A stretch of DNA of 64,000 bases. Source: Candidatus Nomurabacteria bacterium. GTDB taxonomy: Bacteria; Patescibacteriota; Minisyncoccia; Phycocordibacterales; JAACPR01. The notes beneath the pieces are model-generated. The model searched no databases. It saw only the letters and a list, made by a program, of their open reading frames with translations, and was not told the DNA's origin. Each line of letters opens with the position of its first letter. The stretch's first letter is position 1. Shown here in pieces: positions 5,139-63,576 of this stretch. The stretch is taken from positions 21,128 through 85,127 of the forward strand of contig JACKFZ010000005.1 of the NCBI GenBank assembly GCA_020632215.1, written 5' to 3'. The position numbers and the translations under genes are program-made.

Positions 5139-8100
5139 TTATTTTACAATACTAATCTTCACTTCTCCAAAACTTAGACCAACTACTTCTCCATCTTCAT
5201 CAATAAATTTAAATTCTGAAATACCAGCTGTACTTTCTATCTCTTTTCTAAACATGTGAATCAAATGTTCTGCTGATTTTGAAATAGTCAAAGTAATTTT
5301 GTCACTTGGCTTCAAATTCATATTTTTTCTCAGACTTTGGATAGAACGAATAAGCTCCCGAGAATCTCCTTCGTTTTTCAAATCTTCGGTAATATTTGTA
5401 TCTAGTTCAACTTTTTTGTCTAACCCAATATCATAATTTACTTCCTTAACATTGACTTCATCTTTTATAAGATCAATTAGGCTAGCTTCGTAATGAGATA
5501 TCTTCACGTTAGTCTTCATAGACTGAAGTGGTTGTCGAACTTTTATACCAGCCTTTGTCCTAGCTTCCAAAGCAATACTGATGAGGTCTCTAATTTCATA
5601 CATTCTCTGTATTAAAGATTGATCAAAACTAGATTTTTTACCAAATAATTTTGCAAAAAATGAAACACTTTGAACTTGTGGCCAATCTTCTAAGTGAACA
5701 CTTTCTTTTCTACCTCCAATTCTCTGATAAACATCTTCTGCAAGATAAGGAGTAAAAGGTGCCATTATTTTTGACAGTTCTATCAAAACAAATTTCATTG
5801 TTTTCAACGCATTTTCCTTATCACCATCTTCCTTAAATCTATCTCTAGATCTTCTAACATACCAAGTAGAAAGATCATCGATAAAATCCAAGATTGGTCT
5901 CTCTGCCCTATCAAGTTTGTATGCTTCCATATTTTCTGTCACTTCTGCAATTGTCTGAGACAATTTAGCTAAAATCCATTTATCTAAAATATTTTCTGAT
6001 TGACTTGAACCTTCTACTTTCTTATCGGCATAAAGTTTATAGAAGGAGACAACGTTTCTTAAACGTAAAATTATTTTTTTATAAATTTCATCAACTCCTT
6101 TTTCTGAAAAATTTAAGTCTTCTGATTGAACTACTGGTGAAGAAAGCAAATAATATCTTTCTGCATCAACACCATATTTATCAAAAATTAACCAAGGGTC
6201 TGGAAAATTGTTTTTTGATTTTGACATCTTTGATCCATCTTCGGCCAAAATATTCCCTGTTGTCACCACATTTTCAAATGGAACATTGTCAAATAGTATG
6301 GCTGAAAGAATATGTGTGTAATAAAACCATGTTCTTGTCTGAGCAATATACTCAGCTACAAACTGTGCTGGGAAATTTCTTTTGAAATTTTCTTTATTTT
6401 CAAAAGGATAATGTTTTTGTGCAAAAGGCATTGATCCAGACTCAACCCAACAATCAATAACTTCAGAGATTCTAGTAAACTTTTTGTCATTCTCTTCAAA
6501 AGTAATGTCGTCAATATATGGTCGGTGAAAATCTAATTCGTAATTATCGTTATGTGGAATTGTCGCGAAATCATATTTTTCGTAATATCCAGGAACAACG
6601 ACTTCTCCTATTTTTTTTCTCATAGAAACAGTATCTGTAATATCTAAACCATTTTGCATAGCCTTTAACATCCAGACACAATATTCGTGAGTAATGATAA
6701 GAATATTTTTTGCTTGATATTTTTTATCTATTTCATAAATAAAATCGCCACATCTTTTCCTCAAATCCAAAATAGACTCTCCACCTTTTGATGGTTTAGT
6801 CATTTTTTCTTCCAATGATGCGAATTGTTCTCGATATTCTTTGCCTAATTTACCATTAAAATTACCAGCTTGAATCTCTTTTATTCTGTCATCTACTAAA
6901 ACATTACTTTTATCCAAACCTAAGCCCTTAGCTACAATGTCTGCAGTTTGTGTTGTTCTATCCAACGGCGAAGTGATGATCAAATCAATATTTTGATTTT
7001 TGAAAAACTCTATTGAATTTCTGACTTCCTCTTTTCCTTTTTCTGTTAAATCACTTTTGACATCATTAGTTGAACAGACAAAATCATCAACATTGCTTTG
7101 TGCTTCACCATGTCGCATGACGAAATATTTGTTTGTGCTTTTTGTTTTTTCTTTTAATTCATCCAAAGATCCGAGAACTTTTAATTCCATTCCATCTTCA
7201 GATTTCCAAAAAGGCAAAGGTGACGCCCAATATCTATTTCTAGAAATGTTCCAATCTGGTGCACTTTCCATACTTTTTTTGAATCTTCCTTCTTTCAAAT
7301 GTTCTGGCACCCAATTGATCTTATTGTTCAAATCCAAAGCTCTTTGTTTAACACTTTGAATATTTATAAACCAAGCAGAAAGTGCGTTATAGAAAAGAGG
7401 AGTCTCACATCTAAAACAATGGGGGTAGGAGTGAATTATTTTTTCTTTTGAAAAAAGCTTCCCTCTATGTGCTAGATTTTTAATAATCTCGATATCTGTT
7501 GATTGGTGAAAATCTTTTTGTTCTGGTGTTGATTTTGGCTTTACTTTGATACCTGCAAACTCTGTCACTTTGTCTATAAAAGTGCCGTTTTGAGCAACAT
7601 GATAGATCAAAGGTAAATTAACCTTTTTTGCTAAAACCATATCTTCTTCACCATACACTGGTGCAAGATGGACAATTCCAGTTCCCTGCTCTGTGGTGAC
7701 ATAATCCGCATTCCATATTTTCCAAATATTTTCTTTATTCTTCAATGGAACATCTTTGAAGTAGTCAAAAACGGGCAAATAACTTTTACCGATCAGATCT
7801 TCTGTATTAACTTTTTCTCCATTAACATCTTCTTTAAAAACTTTTTCAGCTAAATCTTTAGCGACAATATATTTCCCATCTTCTCTAATAACTTGTATAT
7901 ATTCCAAATCTTTATTTATGGCAGCCGCCACATTTCCTGGTAAAGTCCACGGAGTGGTTGTCCAAGCAAGTAAATATGTTTTCAGTTCACTTGCCCCGTT
8001 TGACGCAGTCGTCGAAGACGACTTTTCGTCATTTACGGGGTCAATAAGTTCAAGCTTAACAGTGACAGAAATATCGGTTATGTCTTTGTAACTGTTGTCC

Positions 8101-35881: not shown

Positions 35882-36064
35882 ATTTTTATAAAAAAACTCC
35901 AACGGACCCGAAGGCTGGCTGGAGCGTGTATACCTACAATACTACACATTAACAACAAAAAGTCAATTGCAGGATATACACTTTTTATTACCTGATAGAT
36001 AGTTCTGATTTTAACTCCCATTAGAATACTCAAATTGGTATTGAAAAACAAAGCTGATTTAGCT

Positions 36065-36286
36065 GGGTCCTTATCGGGATTCGGTCACAAATCACTAAGC
36101 ATAATTCTTCACTCCCCTGAAATAAATTCAGGGTCGCTCGAATTCTGCCAAGTGTTCGCGACCCCGACTCGCCGACAAGCATTTTTGCTACGCAAAAATC
36201 TTGTATACCGGCTCCGTCTTTCGAATCCCGCTAAGGCCTCCAAAAATATGTTTCGCAAACGCTACGCATTTGCTTCAGTATTTTTG
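36065..36286 (-). repeat. tRNA-3'-linked conserved structured module (His copy): terminator, antisense tRNA 3' end, covarying hairpin, conserved core, direct repeat of tRNA-His 3' end
   Basis: Shares GTGTTCGCGACCCCGACTCG (36152..36173), TTCGAAAGACGGAGCC and GAAGAATTATGCTTAGTGATTTGTGAC with copies at 39170..39364, 45716..45915 and 52480..52626. 36065..36084 repeats the tRNA-His 3' 20 nt. Confidence 0.6.
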
Positions 36287-39169: not shown

Positions 39170-39364
39170 GGTGCACAAGAGAGGACTTGGTCACAAGTTT
39201 CTAAATTCGTCCTCGATTTCTCTCGGACTCATTAAGAACTTTCGACCCCGGCTCGCCCATCCCAGTTGCTTCGCAACAGGGACCCTAGGGCTCCGCCTTT
39301 CAAGTCCTCTATGTTTACTAAAATAAAGTCGCCGACTCCTGCGGAGCCGACTCTTTTATTTTAT
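39170..39364 (-). repeat. tRNA-3'-linked conserved structured module (Leu copy)
   Basis: Minus-strand read after tRNA-Leu: ataaaataaaagagtcggctccgcaggagtcggcgactttattttag / taaacatagaggacttgaaaggcggagcc / ctagggtccctgttgcgaagcaactgggat / gggcgagccggggtcgaaag... / ttgtgac + caagtcctctcttgtgcacca. Confidence 0.6.
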
Positions 39365-45499: not shown

Positions 45500-45576
45500 G
45501 GGCGATTAGCTCAGTTGGCTAGAGCAACCCGTTTACACCGGGTAGGTCGGGGGTTCGAATCCCTCATCGCCCACCA
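45500..45576 (+). tRNA. tRNA-Val (anticodon TAC), CCA encoded
   Basis: GGGCGAT-TA-GCTC-AGTTGGCTA-GAGC-A-ACCCG-TTTACAC-CGGGT-AGGTC-GGGGG-TTCGAAT-CCCTC-ATCGCCC-A-CCA. Confidence 0.85.
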
Positions 45577-45643
45577 CTTCATCAAAACAACAAGGCACTT
45601 CTAAGTGCAGTAAGTAATGTTGTCTTGAGAAGTTATGCTATCC

Positions 45644-45715
45644 GCTCCCGTAGTTCAATGGATAGAACAGGGGACTTCTAAGCCTCTGATGTAGGTTCGA
45701 TTCCTGCCGGGAGCA
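45644..45715 (+). tRNA. tRNA-Arg (anticodon TCT)
   Basis: Acceptor GCTCCCG/CGGGAGC, anticodon loop CTTCTAA, T-loop TTCGATT. Confidence 0.8.
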
Positions 45716-45915
45716 CAAAAAAACAATGAGTCGGACACGAAGTGTATGGAAATTTGTTTTTAGTGCTATCCGCAGGAATCGAAAGGCGGAAACAAAAAGT
45801 CTGGAGGAACGAAGACTTTTTGTTGAGCCGGGGTCGCGAGCACTTAGTATAATTCGAGCTGAGAGCGAAGAATTATACTTAGTGACTTGTGACCGATTCC
45901 TGCCGGGAGCACCAA
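45716..45915 (+). repeat. tRNA-3'-linked conserved structured module (Arg copy)
   Basis: A-rich terminator; tgctatccgcaggaatcgaaaggcggaaac (antisense of the tRNA-Arg 3' end); a hairpin; gagccggggtcgcgagcacttagtataattcgagctgagagcgaagaattatacttagtgacttgtgac; then cgattcctgccgggagcacca (tRNA 3' end + CCA). Confidence 0.6.
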
Positions 45916-46263
45916 TTAATTTGTAGTTTCCTCTACATTCCCTATGGGTTCACTTGGTGTTACAACACTTTGAACTTTAACTTTCAAGGTTTTTTGTTCA
46001 ATTAACGGACCGGTAACCTCTCTTATCTCCCCCGCACTTAATGTTCGACTAGAGACAACACCTTGAACACTTTTGTTTATTTCTTCATTCAGACTTAAGT
46101 ATGTTTTTGTAGCGAAAATCATAAGACCAATACCAACAATAGCCACAATAAATAATATCATTAACCAATCAAAAGAAATTGAGATTCCACTAATGGCCAA
46201 AGTAGTTTTTCTTGTTTCGTGATATCGTCTACTATAGTCTTTGTATTTTTCAAAAATTTTCAT
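45916..46263 (-). CDS. small membrane-anchored protein in a pilMNO-like cluster (PilP-like?)
   Basis: 115 aa, one TM segment; context only. Confidence 0.3.
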   Translation of the reverse strand: MKIFEKYKDYSRRYHETRKTTLAISGISISFDWLMILFIVAIVGIGLMIFATKTYLSLNEEINKSVQGVVSSRTLSAGEIREVTGPLIEQKTLKVKVQSVVTPSEPIGNVEETTN

Positions 46264-46264
46264 A

Positions 46265-46834
46265 TTAATTTGTTAAGACTGAAATATTAAAAATGGCTCC
46301 CCACAACACGGATCCAGATTCACCATCAACAGAAGAAGAAAGACGTAAGCCATCAATTGTAATCTTTTTATCTATCTTTTCCAAAATTGCCAAGAAAGAC
46401 ATTATCGCATTCCAACTACCACGAGTCTGTACTGTTAAAATTAATTCGCCTCCTCCTCTAACTTCCTGACTTTTGATCTCTCCGTTTTCTTCTGTTCTCT
46501 TTGTACGATTTCTATCTTCCAATCGAACATTTTGTATTTCAGCAGTCAGTCCTGTTGTCACAGCAAACTCCTCTATTTTTCCAATAAAATTCACAACAGC
46601 ATCTGGTTCAATAAAAAAATTATTGAGCTCTTCAACTTCAAACTGGATTATTTGCAAAGACTGTTTTATCTCAACGATATTCTCAGACTTCAATTCTTTT
46701 ACTTTTGTTAATGTGTCCAAAAGATGAGTTTTTTGTTTAAAGATAAAAGTAATAAAAAAGATGCTAGCAGTAGTAATTAATGCAAAAAGTATTGTAGATA
46801 TAATCAATATTATTTTGTCTTGCTTATTGTTCAT
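46265..46834 (-). CDS. PilO-like pilus assembly protein
   Basis: 189 aa, N-terminal TM segment then a coiled-coil; context. Confidence 0.35.
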   Translation of the reverse strand: MNNKQDKIILIISTILFALITTASIFFITFIFKQKTHLLDTLTKVKELKSENIVEIKQSLQIIQFEVEELNNFFIEPDAVVNFIGKIEEFAVTTGLTAEIQNVRLEDRNRTKRTEENGEIKSQEVRGGGELILTVQTRGSWNAIMSFLAILEKIDKKITIDGLRLSSSVDGESGSVLWGAIFNISVLTN

Positions 46835-47366
46835 CCTCTTTTGCTAATTTTATTTTTATCAAAAATGGAATATCAGAGCTTCTAGTAAAACTTGATACTG
46901 GTAAATCAACAGCTTCAAAATATGCTGATTCTTCTAATAAATTTCCAAACTCTACTAAACTTTCGCGGTTATTGGCTACACCTTGCAATTCTACAATATC
47001 TCCCTTGTTGTCTTTTTTAAAATCGATGACATTAATCCTGACGGATCTGATTTGCCGACTAGTAACTTCTCTTACCAACTCAGAGACAACAATACTTTCA
47101 GCTTTTAGCGAATTCAACTGAAAACGAATCAGACCAACATCATCTCTTAACTGATTACGATCTTGAGACAAACCGAATACCGTTAGTGAATCTAATTCTT
47201 TTTGAGCTGCATCATTCTGCCCTTTGATTAGAAAAAGCGTTGGAATAAAAGCAATATCTAAGACAATTATAGTAATGATCAAAAACACAAAAAGAAGAGT
47301 GAGAAAACGAATATTGTATTCTCTCTTTAATTTATTTTTCTCTTTTTCAGTAAAAAAATACAACAT
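46824..47366 (-). CDS. PilN-like pilus assembly protein
   Basis: 180 aa, short basic N-terminus then a TM segment; overlaps its neighbours by a few bases. Confidence 0.4.
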   Translation of the reverse strand: MLYFFTEKEKNKLKREYNIRFLTLLFVFLIITIIVLDIAFIPTLFLIKGQNDAAQKELDSLTVFGLSQDRNQLRDDVGLIRFQLNSLKAESIVVSELVREVTSRQIRSVRINVIDFKKDNKGDIVELQGVANNRESLVEFGNLLEESAYFEAVDLPVSSFTRSSDIPFLIKIKLAKEDEQ

Positions 47367-47367
47367 A

Positions 47368-48384
47368 TTACGAATCTTTATTTATCAAAGCTAGTCCAAT
47401 GGCAATACCGTAACGTAATGAGTCTACTTTACTTATTTCTGGAATATATTTATCAAGAGAAAAACAATTTCTCCAAACATCTGCCACTTGAACTGATAAT
47501 CTCAAGTGTCTTTCTAGAAAATTAACTAGGTCGATTGAATTACCAACTTCTCCTGTAACAATAGCCAATTCGATCTTTTCATTCTGACTTGGGTCATGTT
47601 CATTGGTAAACCAGTATATAAGGAGCTTATTTATTTGCTCTTTCAAAATTTGTGCTTCGTTTGAAGTGAGATCGGCAACAACTTGCCCCCCACCAACAGG
47701 CACAGAGGAAGCATATTGAACAATATTTTTCTCGACAATAGATAAGTTTATCTTTGTTGCTCCTAAATGTATTAGTAGGTATGAATCATGATCATTTCGG
47801 TCTATGACAGAACGAGCTAAGGCATGACTTTCAGATTCAAAAGTAATTGGAAATAAATTCAAACTATGCAAAAGTTCGGTGTAAGTTTCTATAACCCCTT
47901 TTGGTAAAGCAGCAACTGTTACCTCAAAGTCATCGCTTACTCCTCGAGTATTTTGGTTCATAACATAATAGTGAAAAATAACATCTTCTGGAGACAATGG
48001 GACATTATCTTCTAGCTTGAACTTAATAGCATGACGAATATTAATAGCTGCTTCTTTTGGTAAAGTAATCTTGAAAATATATGTTTTTAGCTCTGGGATA
48101 GAAACATTAACAAATCTCATCTTATACTTATCTCTTAACTTAACTAGAGCTTCTTGTAACTCATCACAACTAGAAAGATCTTTCTCGCTTTCTAAAAGAC
48201 TACAAGATTCTGTTAAAATAATTTCATCATAAACAACAGGCGTATAACCGTTTTTGGTGTGAGTCATCTGCATCATCCTCACCGCTTTCGGAGAAATTTC
48301 AAGAGCAAAAGGATCCAAAGTTAAGTATTTTGGTACAGGAAAAAATTTTTGCAAAAGAGATGTCTTTCTCTCCGAAATAATCAT
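47368..48384 (-). CDS. PilM-like (actin-fold) pilus assembly ATPase-like protein
   Basis: 338 aa; size and position upstream of the N/O-like genes. Confidence 0.45.
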   Translation of the reverse strand: MIISERKTSLLQKFFPVPKYLTLDPFALEISPKAVRMMQMTHTKNGYTPVVYDEIILTESCSLLESEKDLSSCDELQEALVKLRDKYKMRFVNVSIPELKTYIFKITLPKEAAINIRHAIKFKLEDNVPLSPEDVIFHYYVMNQNTRGVSDDFEVTVAALPKGVIETYTELLHSLNLFPITFESESHALARSVIDRNDHDSYLLIHLGATKINLSIVEKNIVQYASSVPVGGGQVVADLTSNEAQILKEQINKLLIYWFTNEHDPSQNEKIELAIVTGEVGNSIDLVNFLERHLRLSVQVADVWRNCFSLDKYIPEISKVDSLRYGIAIGLALINKDS

Positions 48385-52299: not shown

Positions 52300-52479
52300 T
52301 ATAGAATCATAATTCTAAATCTTAACAAAACCCTAAAGGTCTAGTTTCATGCCACGATTTTTACTTAATATACCCATATTACCAATTAAGAGTTTTTTAG
52401 TCACTACAGGACACACGGATCACACAAATACTAAATTCTTACTGCGGGGCATTTTTTACACAAAAATTTGAGATTATAA

Positions 52480-52626
52480 AATACAAAGTGTTCGCGACCC
52501 CGACTCGGCCATCCCACGTAGAAGGCTACGCCTTCTACGTGGGACCCTGGGCCTCCGTCTTTCGAATCCCCTCCTCCTGTAAAATAAAAGTCGGACAACG
52601 CTTCGCGTTGCCCTCCTTTATTTTAT
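52480..52626 (-). repeat. tRNA-3'-linked conserved structured module (Ser copy; no terminal direct repeat seen)
   Basis: cataaaataaaggagggcaacgcgaagcgttgtccgacttttattttac / aggaggaggggattcgaaagacggaggcc / cagggtcccacgtagaaggcgtagccttctacgtgggat / ggccgagtcggggtcgcgaacactttg. Confidence 0.55.
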
Positions 52627-52713
52627 GCGGAGGGAGTGAGATTCGAACTCACGGTCCCCTTTCGGAGACTCCGGTTTTCAAGACCGGTGCATTCAACCAC
52701 TCTGCCATCCCTC
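52627..52713 (-). tRNA. tRNA-Ser (anticodon TGA)
   Basis: GGAGGGA-TG-GCAGAGTGGTTGAATGCACC-GGTCT-TGA-AAACCGG-long variable arm-GTGAG-TTCGAAT-CTCAC-TCCCTCC-G. Confidence 0.75.
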
Positions 52714-63359: not shown

Positions 63360-63439
63360 TTTTGAATACTATCTCATGTTGTCTAAATTAATTATAAATA
63401 AGTTCTAAACTAGATGGTCACATAAAGTTCGTTGCAAAA

Positions 63440-63503
63440 CAACTCACCACGTGACTAAAATAAAAGTCACCGACTCCTGCGGAGCCGGTTCCTTTATTTT
63501 ATG
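63440..63503 (-). terminator. A/T-flanked GC hairpin module after tRNA-Lys, near-identical to the one after tRNA-Leu
   Basis: aaagtcaccgactcctgcggagccggttcctttattttatg vs aaagtcgccgactcctgcggagccgactcttttattttatg (39327..39367). Confidence 0.6.
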
Positions 63504-63576
63504 TCCACCCGGCAGGGCTCGAACCTGCGACCCTCTGCTTAAAAGGCAGGTGCTCTACCAGCTGAGCTACGGGTGG
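63504..63576 (-). tRNA. tRNA-Lys (anticodon TTT)
   Basis: CCACCCG-TA-GCTC-AGCTGGTA-GAGC-A-CCTGC-CTTTTAA-GCAGA-GGGTC-GCAGG-TTCGAGC-CCTGC-CGGGTGG-A; unusual C1:G72. Confidence 0.7.

Follow-up and report, generated by a model that had tools for sequence, protein, structure and literature searches.

Islands and prophages carrying an integrase are known from the T-loop sublocation of tRNA and tmRNA genes, together with miniature cis-mobilizable derivatives, and a direct repeat running from the T-loop to the 3′ end of the gene brackets the insert. These insertions leave the tRNA intact, use tmRNA as a target as well and accrete in tandem, and their distal repeats decay; identity from T-loop to gene end, tmRNA targets and tandem accretion are reportedly the hallmarks of integrase integration at this sublocation. 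A second set of described elements, comprising bacterial MITEs, Correia, RPE and REP/BIME elements and palindrome-associated elements derived from IS200/605, are small, non-coding, multi-copy and strongly folding; they are patchy among relatives, break assemblies, and are presumably mobilized in trans. Here we describe a module that resembles both in these respects. Its family is widespread in Patescibacteria (CPR bacteria), and it has no counterpart among the RNA families and mobile elements described in the sources searched (Rfam 15, phage and plasmid collections, searchable papers). We consider, with a probability of about one half, that it is a non-autonomous mobile element that homes to tRNA and tmRNA 3′ ends and is active as a folded single strand, probably RNA.

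The copy studied in most detail lies in the window, by which we mean the whole 64-kb stretch of DNA that was analysed. It spans about 196 nt (45717–45912, plus strand) directly 3′ of tRNA-Arg(TCT), which ARAGORN, Rfam (tRNA, 64.2 bits) and the sequence itself place at 45644–45716 on the plus strand, as a sequence-only reading of this DNA had proposed. Within the tRNA gene, T54 is at 45696, C56 at 45698, the discriminator A73 at 45715 and C74 at 45716; CCA is not encoded. Modules begin with a hairpin that has an A-run on one side and a T-run on the other; next come a 5′ arm and a core forming a three-way junction, and last the tRNA sequence from C56 onward to the gene end, copied exactly. In the Arg copy the spacer hairpin between A-run and T-run has a weak stem (45717–45762; sequence, palindrome and terminator scans) and is followed by the 5′ arm (45763–45781; inverted repeats, fold, and P1 covariation at positions 56–66). 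Next come a junction AAA (45782–45784), invariant in all 91 aligned modules, and P2 (45785–45829; alignment, covariation, inverted repeat), which is built from a base helix GRC/GYC with R:Y covariation, a conserved internal loop GGA/GA, and a variable hairpin. An invariant junction GGG (45830–45832; alignment) leads into P3, a long hairpin GTCG...GTGAC (45833–45893; covariation, inverted repeat, fold) with an invariant G·U pair, a conserved bulged A and many compensatory pairs. The consensus of the conserved core is GAAAGRCGGA...GAGYCGGGGTCG...GTGAC. The module closes with the 3′ arm (45894–45912; direct repeat, sequence, ORF list), an exact terminal copy of C56–C74 of tRNA-Arg.

The repeats at this locus all involve the tRNA 3′ end. 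A repeat search found the exact 19-nt direct repeat formed by copy 1 within the tRNA (45698–45716, C56 to C74) and the terminal copy (45894–45912). The closing stem corresponds to the inverted repeat 45760–45781/45894–45915, and a longer imperfect palindrome (45696–45727/45752–45783) is 81% complementary. Across the family the 5′ arm is complementary to the T-loop and the 3′ half of the T-stem of the adjoining tRNA; here its partner is the terminal copy, forming P1, or alternatively tRNA positions 56–74, and its complementarity to the tRNA 3′ end covers 17 of 20 bases. This segment had been said to start exactly at the complement of the discriminator base, which does not hold, as G45763 also pairs with C74 and complementarity runs on through the A-run and T-run. 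A further expectation, that the start of a pil-like gene adjoins the terminal repeat, proved wrong too: the terminal copy is followed by CA (so that CCA reads at 45912–45914) and then by the stop codon (45916–45918) of the minus-strand ORF 45916–46263, whose start at 46263 is 350 nt away.

Within the window the core motif GAGYCGGGGTCG is present at four places only, 3′ of the Arg, His, Leu and Ser tRNAs and on the same strand as the tRNA. A covariance model built from the 91 modules likewise gave only four matches in the 64 kb (Arg 80.5, His 77, Leu 70.1 and Ser 24.1 bits), with E-values reaching 1e-18 to 1e-21 and only at these tRNA sites, so that four of the seven tRNA genes in the window carry a module. 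The tRNA calls and core-motif positions bear out the sequence-only reading in placing the His, Leu and Ser copies on the minus strand behind minus-strand tRNAs. The His module (36064–36285; sequence, repeats, model match) lies 3′ of tRNA-His (36358–36286), with its 5′ arm at 36240–36220, core GAGTCGGGGTCG at 36170–36159 and terminal copy at 36083–36064. The Leu module (39171–39364; repeats, model match), 3′ of tRNA-Leu(GAG) (39449–39365), has a terminator-like hairpin at 39351–39331, 5′ arm at 39319–39299, core at 39254–39243 and terminal copy at 39189–39171. The Ser module (52459–52626; sequence, model match), 3′ of tRNA-Ser(TGA) (52714–52627), retains an intact 5′ arm, P2 and core (52506–52495), but it has no terminal tRNA repeat, its 3′ part being decayed and without an exact tRNA repeat. 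Behind tRNA-Lys (63503–63576, minus strand) sequence and alignment show a relic without a model match (63415–63502, minus strand); it comprises a hairpin nearly identical to that of the Leu copy and a short remnant ending ...TATGTGACC, with no core and no terminal copy. Exact repeats of the tRNA end, 19–20 nt long, thus border the modules on both sides at three window tRNAs (Arg, His and Leu), and the palindromes at the Arg and His copies are 81–85% complementary. The P2 type differs among the window modules, so this genome has seen no recent burst of copying.

The fold was assessed on the alignment of 91 modules. We see that 80.3% of alignment cells are paired in the predicted fold, compared to 63.8% when shuffled and 32–41% when partners are slid, and that the covariation score is 0.489 versus 0.19 in shuffles. 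In P3, 92.9% of cells are paired, with changes on both sides in 9 of 14 pairs. The R:Y pair of P2 is A-U in 68 modules, G-C in 22, G-U in one and A-C in none, with C-G there in divergent copies. Some 28 bases of the junction do not vary at all. Since the G·U pair is invariant in 91/91 modules, the folding strand is the tRNA-sense strand; the bottom strand was considered and is ruled out by this invariant G·T and many other G·T pairs. These compensatory changes show that the tRNA-sense strand folds as a conserved three-way junction made up of P1 (5′ arm with the copy of tRNA 56–66), P2 and P3. For the Arg copy, RNAfold (45764–45913) predicts a long closing stem and two inner hairpins (−75.7 kcal/mol, z = −10.6), so the long closing stem that had been anticipated does appear in this fold, but across the family it is conserved only at tRNA positions 56–66 and not in the acceptor part. 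A full acceptor-stem mimic (minihelix) was therefore rejected as a general feature: pairing at positions 67–74 is near random overall and is seen in subfamilies only, where it is either contiguous or interrupted by an inserted hairpin.

Module length across the family is about 115–290 nt, with no ORF inside, and more than 20 tRNA species carry modules, in addition to tmRNA. Counting its sister families, it makes up a superfamily: minimal modules that lack P2, variants of the core, and families C and D all keep the arm-core-arm layout. To count polarity, we used 125 exact pattern matches in 120 species-representative genome loci and the window. Of these, 76 lie at most 150 nt behind a same-strand tRNA, four at most 150 nt behind a same-strand tmRNA, and 12 further behind a same-strand tRNA within a module array; 11 are at a locus edge, with the upstream sequence outside the locus, 16 have no upstream ARAGORN call, and six are chance matches in a GC-rich non-CPR genome. 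Among the matches without a call, many of those inspected show a T-arm-like or tmRNA-like 3′ end upstream. Of the 119 CPR matches, 92 follow a tRNA or tmRNA on the same strand and not one is inverted, in agreement with the earlier view that the module always sits 3′ of a tRNA in the same orientation. That view would have fallen with copies unlinked to tRNAs or inverted; as no pattern match out of 125 lies beside an opposite-strand tRNA, this search fails to refute fixed polarity.

Species differ in whether a given orthologous tRNA site is filled or empty. The tRNA-Leu(GAG) gene beside rplS is followed by a module in the window and in loci L029, L031, L068 and L091, and by none in L054 and L078. 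Only one filled/empty comparison has alignable flanks: L147 (filled) and L148 and L139 (empty) are 81–87% identical there, a divergence of 13–19% that is compatible with insertion or deletion, and the filled allele has an extra terminator hairpin behind the terminal copy. To find strain-level alleles in which the window's own sites are empty, exact-protein look-ups were made; they returned only one or two contigs, which end at the modules; assembled contigs often end within modules. In a sample of 82 loci picked by homology to L19 and not by module, there are 12 model matches with E < 1e-6, at least eight of them immediately behind a tRNA on the same strand; as these loci have roughly 110 tRNA genes, occupancy is only partial. 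None of the four tRNAs of a related genome (L123) has a module. Tandem arrays occur: L069 and L161 have identical units, the array of L051 reads A-D-A-D, and L038 contains three modules. We also see a recombinant, L024, which joins a His-specific 5′ arm to a tmRNA-type terminal copy, and P2 types that differ between orthologous modules. In short, these data show that the module is a small, non-coding, multi-copy dispersed repeat with gains and losses at orthologous tRNA sites, that modules amplify in tandem, and that different copies recombine with each other. The filled and empty sites and the tandem arrays directly support the insertion at fixed polarity that had been suggested from the window.

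The borders are equally regular across the family. The terminal motif YGTGAC is followed by tRNA sequence from C56, and the terminal copy reaches the gene end, with CCA where this is encoded, and can extend up to 10 nt past it, giving a flanking tRNA-derived repeat of 19–29 nt. The tRNA gene is always intact because the element is bordered left and right by a full copy from C56 to the end. In about half of the modules the terminal copy has decayed, often with indels, while the tRNA remains intact; terminal copies are usually followed by their own, different terminator, and in one subfamily of family C they differ systematically from the tRNA at 2 nt. A terminal copy reverse-transcribed from mature tRNA was rejected, as CCA follows the terminal copy in 8/31 intact cases versus 5/31 for copy 1. 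A simple target-site duplication explains the terminal copy, but not the 5′ arm.

Searches for a partner or a relative were made at several levels. At the gathering score, Rfam 15 finds only tRNA families in the whole window, and at E up to 10 it gives nothing relevant in 45600–45960, with hammerhead, hairpin, twister and HDV-like ribozymes, group I/II introns, tmRNA, RNase P and HEARO included. A hammerhead or hairpin ribozyme core was rejected by eye, from misfitting junction strand lengths and conserved bases, and Rfam agrees. BLAST against phage and plasmid collections gave no module match. In 2.9 million viral contigs (IMG/VR) there is one match only, which lies inside a coding region with no tRNA nearby and is thus put down to chance. 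No protein family recurs beside the modules: the commonest neighbours (PilM, L19, RluA, ClpB, IF-2, CCA-adding enzyme and SmpB) are all housekeeping, each present in at most 9/120 loci. No transposase, recombinase or reverse transcriptase linked to modules was seen among the neighbours in the 120 loci. Candidate long autonomous copies were pursued through long-range tRNA-end repeats, which proved to be arrays or rearrangements with no cargo and no enclosed recombinase. A literature search found no description of such an element.

In the mobile-element reading that we favour, the active form would be a folded single strand, RNA being more likely than single-stranded DNA. The 5′ arm would act as a target-recognition (guide) segment that pairs with the T-loop and the 3′ half of the T-stem, a target that would be offered by every tRNA, by tmRNA, and by pseudo-ends left by earlier modules. 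This pairing may position a host-encoded, trans-acting enzyme at the T55|C56 boundary, where integration would duplicate segment 56–74 or supply a replacement copy, usually with a terminator. The tRNA body and terminal copy may in addition serve as homology arms when the element passes from one genome to another. A bolder version of this proposal, which we hold to be unlikely, is that the modules are a new class of protein-less, nucleic-acid-programmed mobile element, in which a three-way-junction RNA or ssDNA homes by an exchangeable arm to any tRNA-like 3′ end. It would then be either a guide for a host enzyme or a ribozyme that cleaves and ligates 5′ of C56, and the replacement tRNA 3′ end that it carries would allow insertion without a phenotype.

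Of the other explanations, the one that survives best, although we judge it somewhat unlikely, is that the modules are a resident ncRNA family: ancient 3′-trailer RNAs that are not mobile and arise when transcription from the tRNA promoter reads through. RNase P, RNase Z and the CCA-adding enzyme would process the tRNA-like closing helix to a stable RNA of about 130–150 nt, which might act in tRNA metabolism, for example as a decoy, sensor or guide for the cognate tRNA; patchiness would then reflect loss, arrays unequal crossing-over, and mixed cores gene conversion. The strongly conserved junction sequence, with its G·U pairs, tandem G·A motifs and recurring loop motifs, is typical of functional RNAs and fits this well. 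L068 and L091 are orthologous modules in which two substituted tRNA positions are matched by changes in the 5′ arm, a sign of selection or gene conversion acting on a resident locus and not of recent copying; in module 3 of L038 the arm is complementary at 21/21 positions although both flanking sense copies are decayed. The differing P2 types of orthologous modules also speak for exchange of cores rather than movement of whole elements. Against this, only a minority of tRNA genes in the unbiased L19 sample has a module, as do none of the four in L123, which makes a core function in tRNA biology unlikely. The frequent decay of terminal copies beside an intact tRNA is likewise at odds with it, and mixed-family arrays in which each unit has its own hairpin and arms are hard to make without insertion.

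Transcription bears on the same question. Most copies have a terminator-like hairpin between tRNA and module, which in the Leu copy scores as an intrinsic-terminator-like site in the terminator scan, and the promoter scan detected no promoter-like site within the modules; transcription of the module, and with it the co-transcription offered in the sequence-only reading, is thus putative, and both observations count against a trailer RNA. About one copy in ten, as judged by eye, has no terminator after the tRNA (L004, L006, L008, L011, L059 and L066), as the resident-RNA explanation would have it. The post-tRNA hairpin was rejected as a constant part of the element, since similar terminators follow tRNAs with no module (L054, and tRNA-Lys in the window).

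Alternatively, the module could be a miniature integrative element that acts at the DNA level, like a cis-mobilizable island or an integron cassette, which appears quite improbable to us. The unit would be [tRNA 56–74]-hairpin-[5′ arm]-core, its palindrome would form in ssDNA an attP-like hairpin mimicking the tRNA 3′ end, and a host tyrosine recombinase would swap strands in the T-loop, leaving the displaced original tRNA end as the terminal copy. The identity block from the T-loop to slightly past the gene end, the tmRNA targets and the tandem accretion at one tRNA are what such an element would give, and a different terminator after the terminal copy is as expected of a displaced native 3′ end. 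The imperfect palindromes fold on one strand, as a folded attachment site should, with 81–85% complementarity at Arg and His, near perfection over about 100 nt in L046, and G·T helices on the tRNA-sense strand only; a d(GCGAAGC)-type mini-hairpin motif is frequent in module loops. What weighs against this account is that there is no linked integrase and no long version, and that the module is absent from phage and plasmid collections and, bar the one chance match, from the viral contigs. Moreover, attC-type sites keep structure and not sequence, whereas the modules keep their invariant junction bases, and a jump to a different tRNA would produce a chimeric, non-functional tRNA.

A T-loop intron with a ‘spare exon’, or a cleaving and ligating ribozyme, is highly improbable. 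In a read-through transcript, the 5′ arm would sequester copy 1 while the tRNA body pairs with the terminal copy; the junction would then cut 5′ of C56 in each copy and rejoin the ends, releasing a possibly circular element and an intact tRNA, and the same reactions run backwards would make the element mobile. When tRNA and module are folded together (45644–45913; −121.8 kcal/mol, z = −10.7), the minimum-free-energy structure does use the terminal copy as the tRNA 3′ half, with copy 1 placed in the palindrome, and both junctions are immediately 5′ of C56, adjoining the invariant junction core. This thermodynamic prediction is, however, the sole basis for the idea: Rfam at E up to 10 holds no similar ribozyme or intron, acceptor-part pairing is not conserved, and the acceptor part of the terminal copy is decayed in many copies, including the orthologous L068 and L091. 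Finally, the notion of ordinary tRNA terminators with fortuitous repeats, which draws on the A-run/T-run hairpins behind module-less tRNAs, can be dismissed as refuted by the exact repeats at three window tRNAs, the model matches at tRNA sites only, and more than 100 homologous copies with covariation.

Comparison with described systems sets the module apart from each of them. Unlike the tRNA/tmRNA islands, it is small (about 115–230 bp), has no integrase (no tyrosine or serine recombinase gene lies inside any module), no cargo, and no presence in phage, plasmid and viral collections; it has a covarying three-way-junction fold and an internal arm complementary to the repeat, and one family serves more than 20 different tRNAs. 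Unlike MITEs, it has no terminal inverted repeats matching an IS element, and no IS partner was seen among neighbouring proteins; its inverted repeats are tRNA-derived and copy-specific, its target is strictly the tRNA 3′ end at strict polarity, and its arms are rewritten for each target, with the 19–29-nt flanking repeat in place of a short fixed target-site duplication. With integron attC and CTX-phage attP(+) it shares an imperfect palindrome, two arms that rebuild a mimic of the target duplex, strand-specific folding, and cassette-like arrays beside a fixed site. It differs in its highly conserved junction sequence and its extra P2 and P3 domains, and, unlike integrons, it has no integron integrase, attI or R′/R′′ consensus; no recombinase family recurs near the modules. 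The retron ncRNA (msr-msd) has a comparable closing stem formed by its ends (a1/a2-like) and a short 5′ hairpin (msr-like) before a long variable 3′ hairpin (msd-like). The module differs in having no adjacent reverse transcriptase gene, upstream or downstream, tRNA-derived arms, and many copies per genome, four of them in 64 kb and all beside tRNAs, where a retron has one copy per locus.

The remaining comparison is with the guide RNAs of mobile elements, which we take to include the IS110 bridge RNA, the omega RNAs of TnpB and IscB, the EBS-IBS pairing of group II introns, and the tRNA-gene-homing crRNAs of CRISPR-associated transposons. By analogy, the module may be likened to these in having a structured scaffold with a segment that matches the flanking target, and in the use of tRNA genes as a safe landing site; as with omega RNAs, a copy of the target directly follows the 3′ end of the scaffold. 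Unlike them, it has no adjacent recombinase, nuclease or reverse transcriptase, with no recurrent neighbour such as tnpB, iscB or a DEDD recombinase to place it in a transposon end, its two arms pair together, and there is no sequence or Rfam similarity. Overall, these tiny Patescibacteria genomes have an annotation gap in what is evidently a major component, a folded element that fragments metagenome assemblies and acts as a site of rearrangement. If its active form is RNA, it could represent a new class of guide RNA or ribozyme associated with the 3′ ends of tRNAs; were it DNA, the module would stand for a novel type of miniature integrative element with a folded attachment site. In what amounts to a programmable-targeting design, it couples a conserved scaffold to arms rewritten for more than 20 tRNAs and tmRNA, and so offers a concrete system for studying how mobile elements with no enzyme of their own use tRNA genes as safe landing sites.

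The module behind tRNA-Arg(TCT) is built in a regular order, with every part on the plus strand. The tRNA gene, one of seven in the window, occupies 45644-45716, with T54 at 45696, C56 at 45698, A73 at 45715 and C74 at 45716 as read from the sequence. It is followed by a hairpin between an A-run and a T-run (45717-45762), a segment complementary to the tRNA 3' end (45763-45783), the motif GAAAGGCGGA with a hairpin (to 45829), GAGCCGGGGTCG with a long hairpin that has GTGAC at its end (to 45893), and an exact copy of tRNA positions C56-C74 (45894-45912). A repeat search returned this 19-nt direct repeat (45698-45716/45894-45912), the pairing of the arms (45760-45781/45894-45915) and a 32-nt imperfect palindrome that joins the tRNA end to the complementary segment (45696-45727/45752-45783). 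The sequence-only reading had the antisense segment starting exactly at the complement of the discriminator base; instead, the complementarity is part of the longer palindrome. The closing stem proposed in that reading is predicted by RNAfold, which recovers the three-way junction from the Arg module (z = -10.6). With the tRNA added, the minimum-free-energy fold, a thermodynamic prediction only, would pair the terminal copy with the tRNA body and hold the tRNA's own 3' half in the palindrome. The repeat search also found an exact 10-nt direct repeat, TGCTATCCGC, at 45636-45645 and 45764-45773; the first copy spans the 5' boundary of tRNA-Arg, the second opens the 5' arm, and the pair brackets tRNA and hairpin. 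On the other side of the module, a pil-like gene had been thought to start immediately after the terminal repeat, but the open reading frame 45916-46263 (-) ends at the repeat and starts elsewhere. It is the last gene of a cluster including PilM and PilN homologues, which adjoins tRNA-Arg(TCT) both in the window (45916-48384, -) and in the related genome L123 (3996-6562), where the tRNA runs opposite to the cluster and carries no module.

The same layout is seen on the minus strand at tRNA-His and tRNA-Leu, with exact repeats of 20 nt and 19 nt, respectively. At tRNA-Ser the layout also follows the tRNA as had been described, but the 3' part has decayed and the terminal repeat is missing. In the window sequence, no module was found behind tRNA-Val or tRNA-Arg(GCG). 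The core motif occurs four times in the 64 kb, each time on the strand of its tRNA, and the family covariance model matches within the window at the four module sites only (80.5, 77, 70.1 and 24.1 bits). As both signals are confined to four tRNA-linked sites, the window modules are real and far beyond chance. The flank of tRNA-Lys (63415-63502, -) holds a hairpin nearly identical to the one following tRNA-Leu, then a short remnant ending TATGTGACC; there is no core, tRNA copy or covariance-model match in this flank, and the remnant looks like a decayed module. Two further likenesses give a hint, from sequence comparison, that the core may be tRNA-derived. In the Ser module, the 3' strand of P2 together with GAGT (GGGATGGCCGAGT, 52503-52515, -) is identical at 12 of 13 positions, with borderline significance, to the 5' acceptor/D-arm of tRNA-Ser (GGGATGGCAGAGT, 52699-52711, -), and the family core GAGTCGGGGTCGAGA resembles the variable loop and 5' half of the T-arm of tRNA-Val (AGGTCGGGGGTTCGAAT, about 45540-45556).

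The module belongs to a repeat family that is widespread in Patescibacteria and restricted to them. When one genome per species was scanned for the exact pattern, at least 120 loci matched, and among the 125 matches listed the carriers are nearly all Patescibacteria (Saccharibacteria, Paceibacteria/Parcubacteria lineages, Moraniibacteriota, Minisyncoccia). Six matches in GC-rich genomes were rejected as chance, lacking every other module feature. Modules take a fixed position and polarity behind genes for tRNA and tmRNA: 76 of the 125 matches listed have a same-strand tRNA 18-121 nt upstream (mode 64-67), 4 lie behind tmRNA, 12 in arrays behind earlier modules and 11 at a locus edge, and 16 have no ARAGORN call upstream. 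Many of these 16, where inspected, show tmRNA-like or T-arm-like 3' ends upstream. None of the 125 is inverted relative to a tRNA and all four window copies keep the orientation of their tRNA, so the same-strand, 3'-of-tRNA placement claimed earlier holds. More than 20 tRNA species carry modules. In L098, L116 and L115 (about 6650-6890), the stretch between tRNA and module contains long perfect hairpins and T-arm-like starts of the GGTTCGAGC type, none of them called as a tRNA by ARAGORN; these may represent a further type of insertion behind tRNAs. Rfam 15 has no family matching the module, IMG/VR gave only one chance match inside a coding region, the phage and plasmid collections did not contain it, and a literature search found no description of such an element.

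The single-strand fold is conserved. For 91 distinct modules aligned over 108 anchored columns, with the structure read from the sequences and then counted on the same alignment, pairing reaches 80.3% of cells, compared with 63.8% after column shuffling and 32-41% with slid partners; for covariation the score is 0.489, the same two controls giving 0.19 and 0.11-0.15, respectively. P3 (GTCG...GTGAC) shows 92.9% pairing; 9 of its 14 pairs have compensatory changes, a bulged A is conserved, and one G.U pair is invariant in 91/91 modules. The base helix of P2 is GRC/GYC, its middle pair being A-U in 68 modules, G-C in 22, G-U in one and A-C in none, and C-G in more distant copies (L147, L136, L205); above it lie a conserved GGA/GA internal loop and a covarying helix. 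About 28 junction bases never change. P1, formed by the 5' arm and the terminal copy, pairs and covaries only over tRNA positions 56-66. Its acceptor part is near random overall and paired in subfamilies only, some of which have an additional hairpin inserted precisely where the complement of the acceptor meets that of the T-stem. Because G.T pairs become A.C mismatches on the opposite strand, the tRNA-sense strand is the one that folds. Two loop motifs recur, GA-NN-(GAA or GNNG)-NN-GA at the P3 tip, including the GCGAAGC mini-hairpin, and a six-base NAGYAN loop in P2 of the short subfamily; to judge from their sequences, they look like putative contact or protein-binding sites.

The left edge of the tRNA repeat is fixed at C56, immediately 3' of the conserved GTGAC, and its right edge lies 0-10 nt past the tRNA gene end, CCA included where encoded. 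In roughly half of modules the terminal copy matches exactly for 18-29 nt; in the others it has decayed by mismatches, indels or truncation. Often a different terminator of its own comes after it, which fits a displaced native 3' end. An origin of terminal copies from mature tRNA was rejected since CCA is not enriched behind them (8/31, vs 5/31 after copy 1, the one inside the tRNA).

Modules are gained or lost, amplified and recombined. In a gene neighbourhood conserved in Paceibacteria (pil genes, tRNA-Arg(TCT)/Val(TAC), rluA, rplS, tRNA-Leu(GAG), tRNA-His), the module-bearing tRNA varies by species. The tRNA-Leu(GAG) site beside rplS is filled in the window and in four loci from other genomes (L029, L031, L068, L091), has modules in tandem or divergent variants behind it in L038, L074, L088 and L108, and is empty in L054 and L078, with a plain terminator or unique DNA behind the tRNA. 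The related genome L123 has no module at any of four tRNAs. Occupancy is low in an unbiased sample of 82 loci gathered by L19 homology rather than by module, with 12 model matches at E below 1e-6 for roughly 110 tRNA genes, at least 8 of them directly 3' of a same-strand tRNA. The filled locus L147 and the empty L148 share 87% identity in a 754-nt alignment across rplS and the tRNA, and 83% over the tRNA-proximal 488 nt; the L139 site is empty too. The shared flank begins 8 nt past the tRNA in L148 and 45 nt past the terminal copy in L147. The two differ cleanly by the presence or absence of about 230 bp, whose left boundary is the end of the tRNA; at such divergence the difference is not polarizable as insertion or deletion. 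Identical tandem units occur in L069 and L161, three modules follow one tRNA in L038 and two in L014, and in L051 modules of family A alternate with those of family D over about 900 nt. Behind tRNA-His in L024 (4386-4700), a His-specific 5' arm is combined with a tmRNA-type terminal copy (CGATTCGCCGTCTCCACA), followed by another palindromic hairpin; this module is probably a recombinant between two modules. In independent assemblies of the window's own species (L121, L122), contigs break in or beside module-bearing tRNAs, and the repeat appears to fragment metagenome assemblies.

Sister families have one order of parts in common: 5' arm, GAA, core, hairpin and tRNA copy. They comprise modules without P2 (L088), core variants (L074, L108, L136, L161, L167, L200), family C, with GAAAAGGYTG...CAACCTGTACTG and then a hairpin with a TGTAA loop at the end (L031, L038, L040, L062, L086, L102, L139, L150, L168, L178, L179, L199), and family D (L051). 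Families C and D also lie behind tRNAs, with different cores, often mixed with family A in arrays. In one family C subfamily the copy has two extra bases before T60 relative to the tRNA, at six different tRNAs; either the junction is at 59|60 there, or the arm was shaped by structure and not copied.

The family has no coding capacity. It has no linked protein either, no protein family recurring among the genes neighbouring modules. We infer that the module is a non-autonomous mobile element whose active form is the folded strand, with a 5' arm that would recognize the 3' half of the T-arm common to any tRNA-like end. RNA is the more likely form, given that the junction and a G.U pair are invariant, that G.A motifs occur in tandem and that loop sequences recur. 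The main gap in the mobile-element reading lies in how the two arms each acquire their tRNA specificity: target duplication accounts for the terminal copy and not for the 5' arm. In the orthologous loci L068 and L091 this arm has changed in step with the tRNA, an argument for selection or gene conversion acting at resident loci. A resident trailer RNA family is one rival explanation. Another is a DNA-level integrative mini-element, with the fold as its attachment site, and a third is a T-loop 'spare-exon' intron or ribozyme.

That the module is a categorically new, nucleic-acid-programmed mobile system has about a one in five chance. Its likenesses place it among known kinds. Flanking repeat, tmRNA targeting and tandem accretion, all found here, are reportedly (Williams, in 2002) the signature of integrase-borne islands at the T-loop sublocation; the module differs in having no integrase, in being a hundred times smaller and in its covarying core. 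It resembles MITEs in size and copy-number behaviour, but lacks both terminal inverted repeats and an IS partner. With the guide-bearing RNAs of mobile elements and with retron ncRNAs it shares layout only, their defining neighbour genes being absent here. We therefore file the module as a small, non-autonomous element aimed at the 3' ends of tRNAs or as a structured non-coding RNA, both of which are known kinds.
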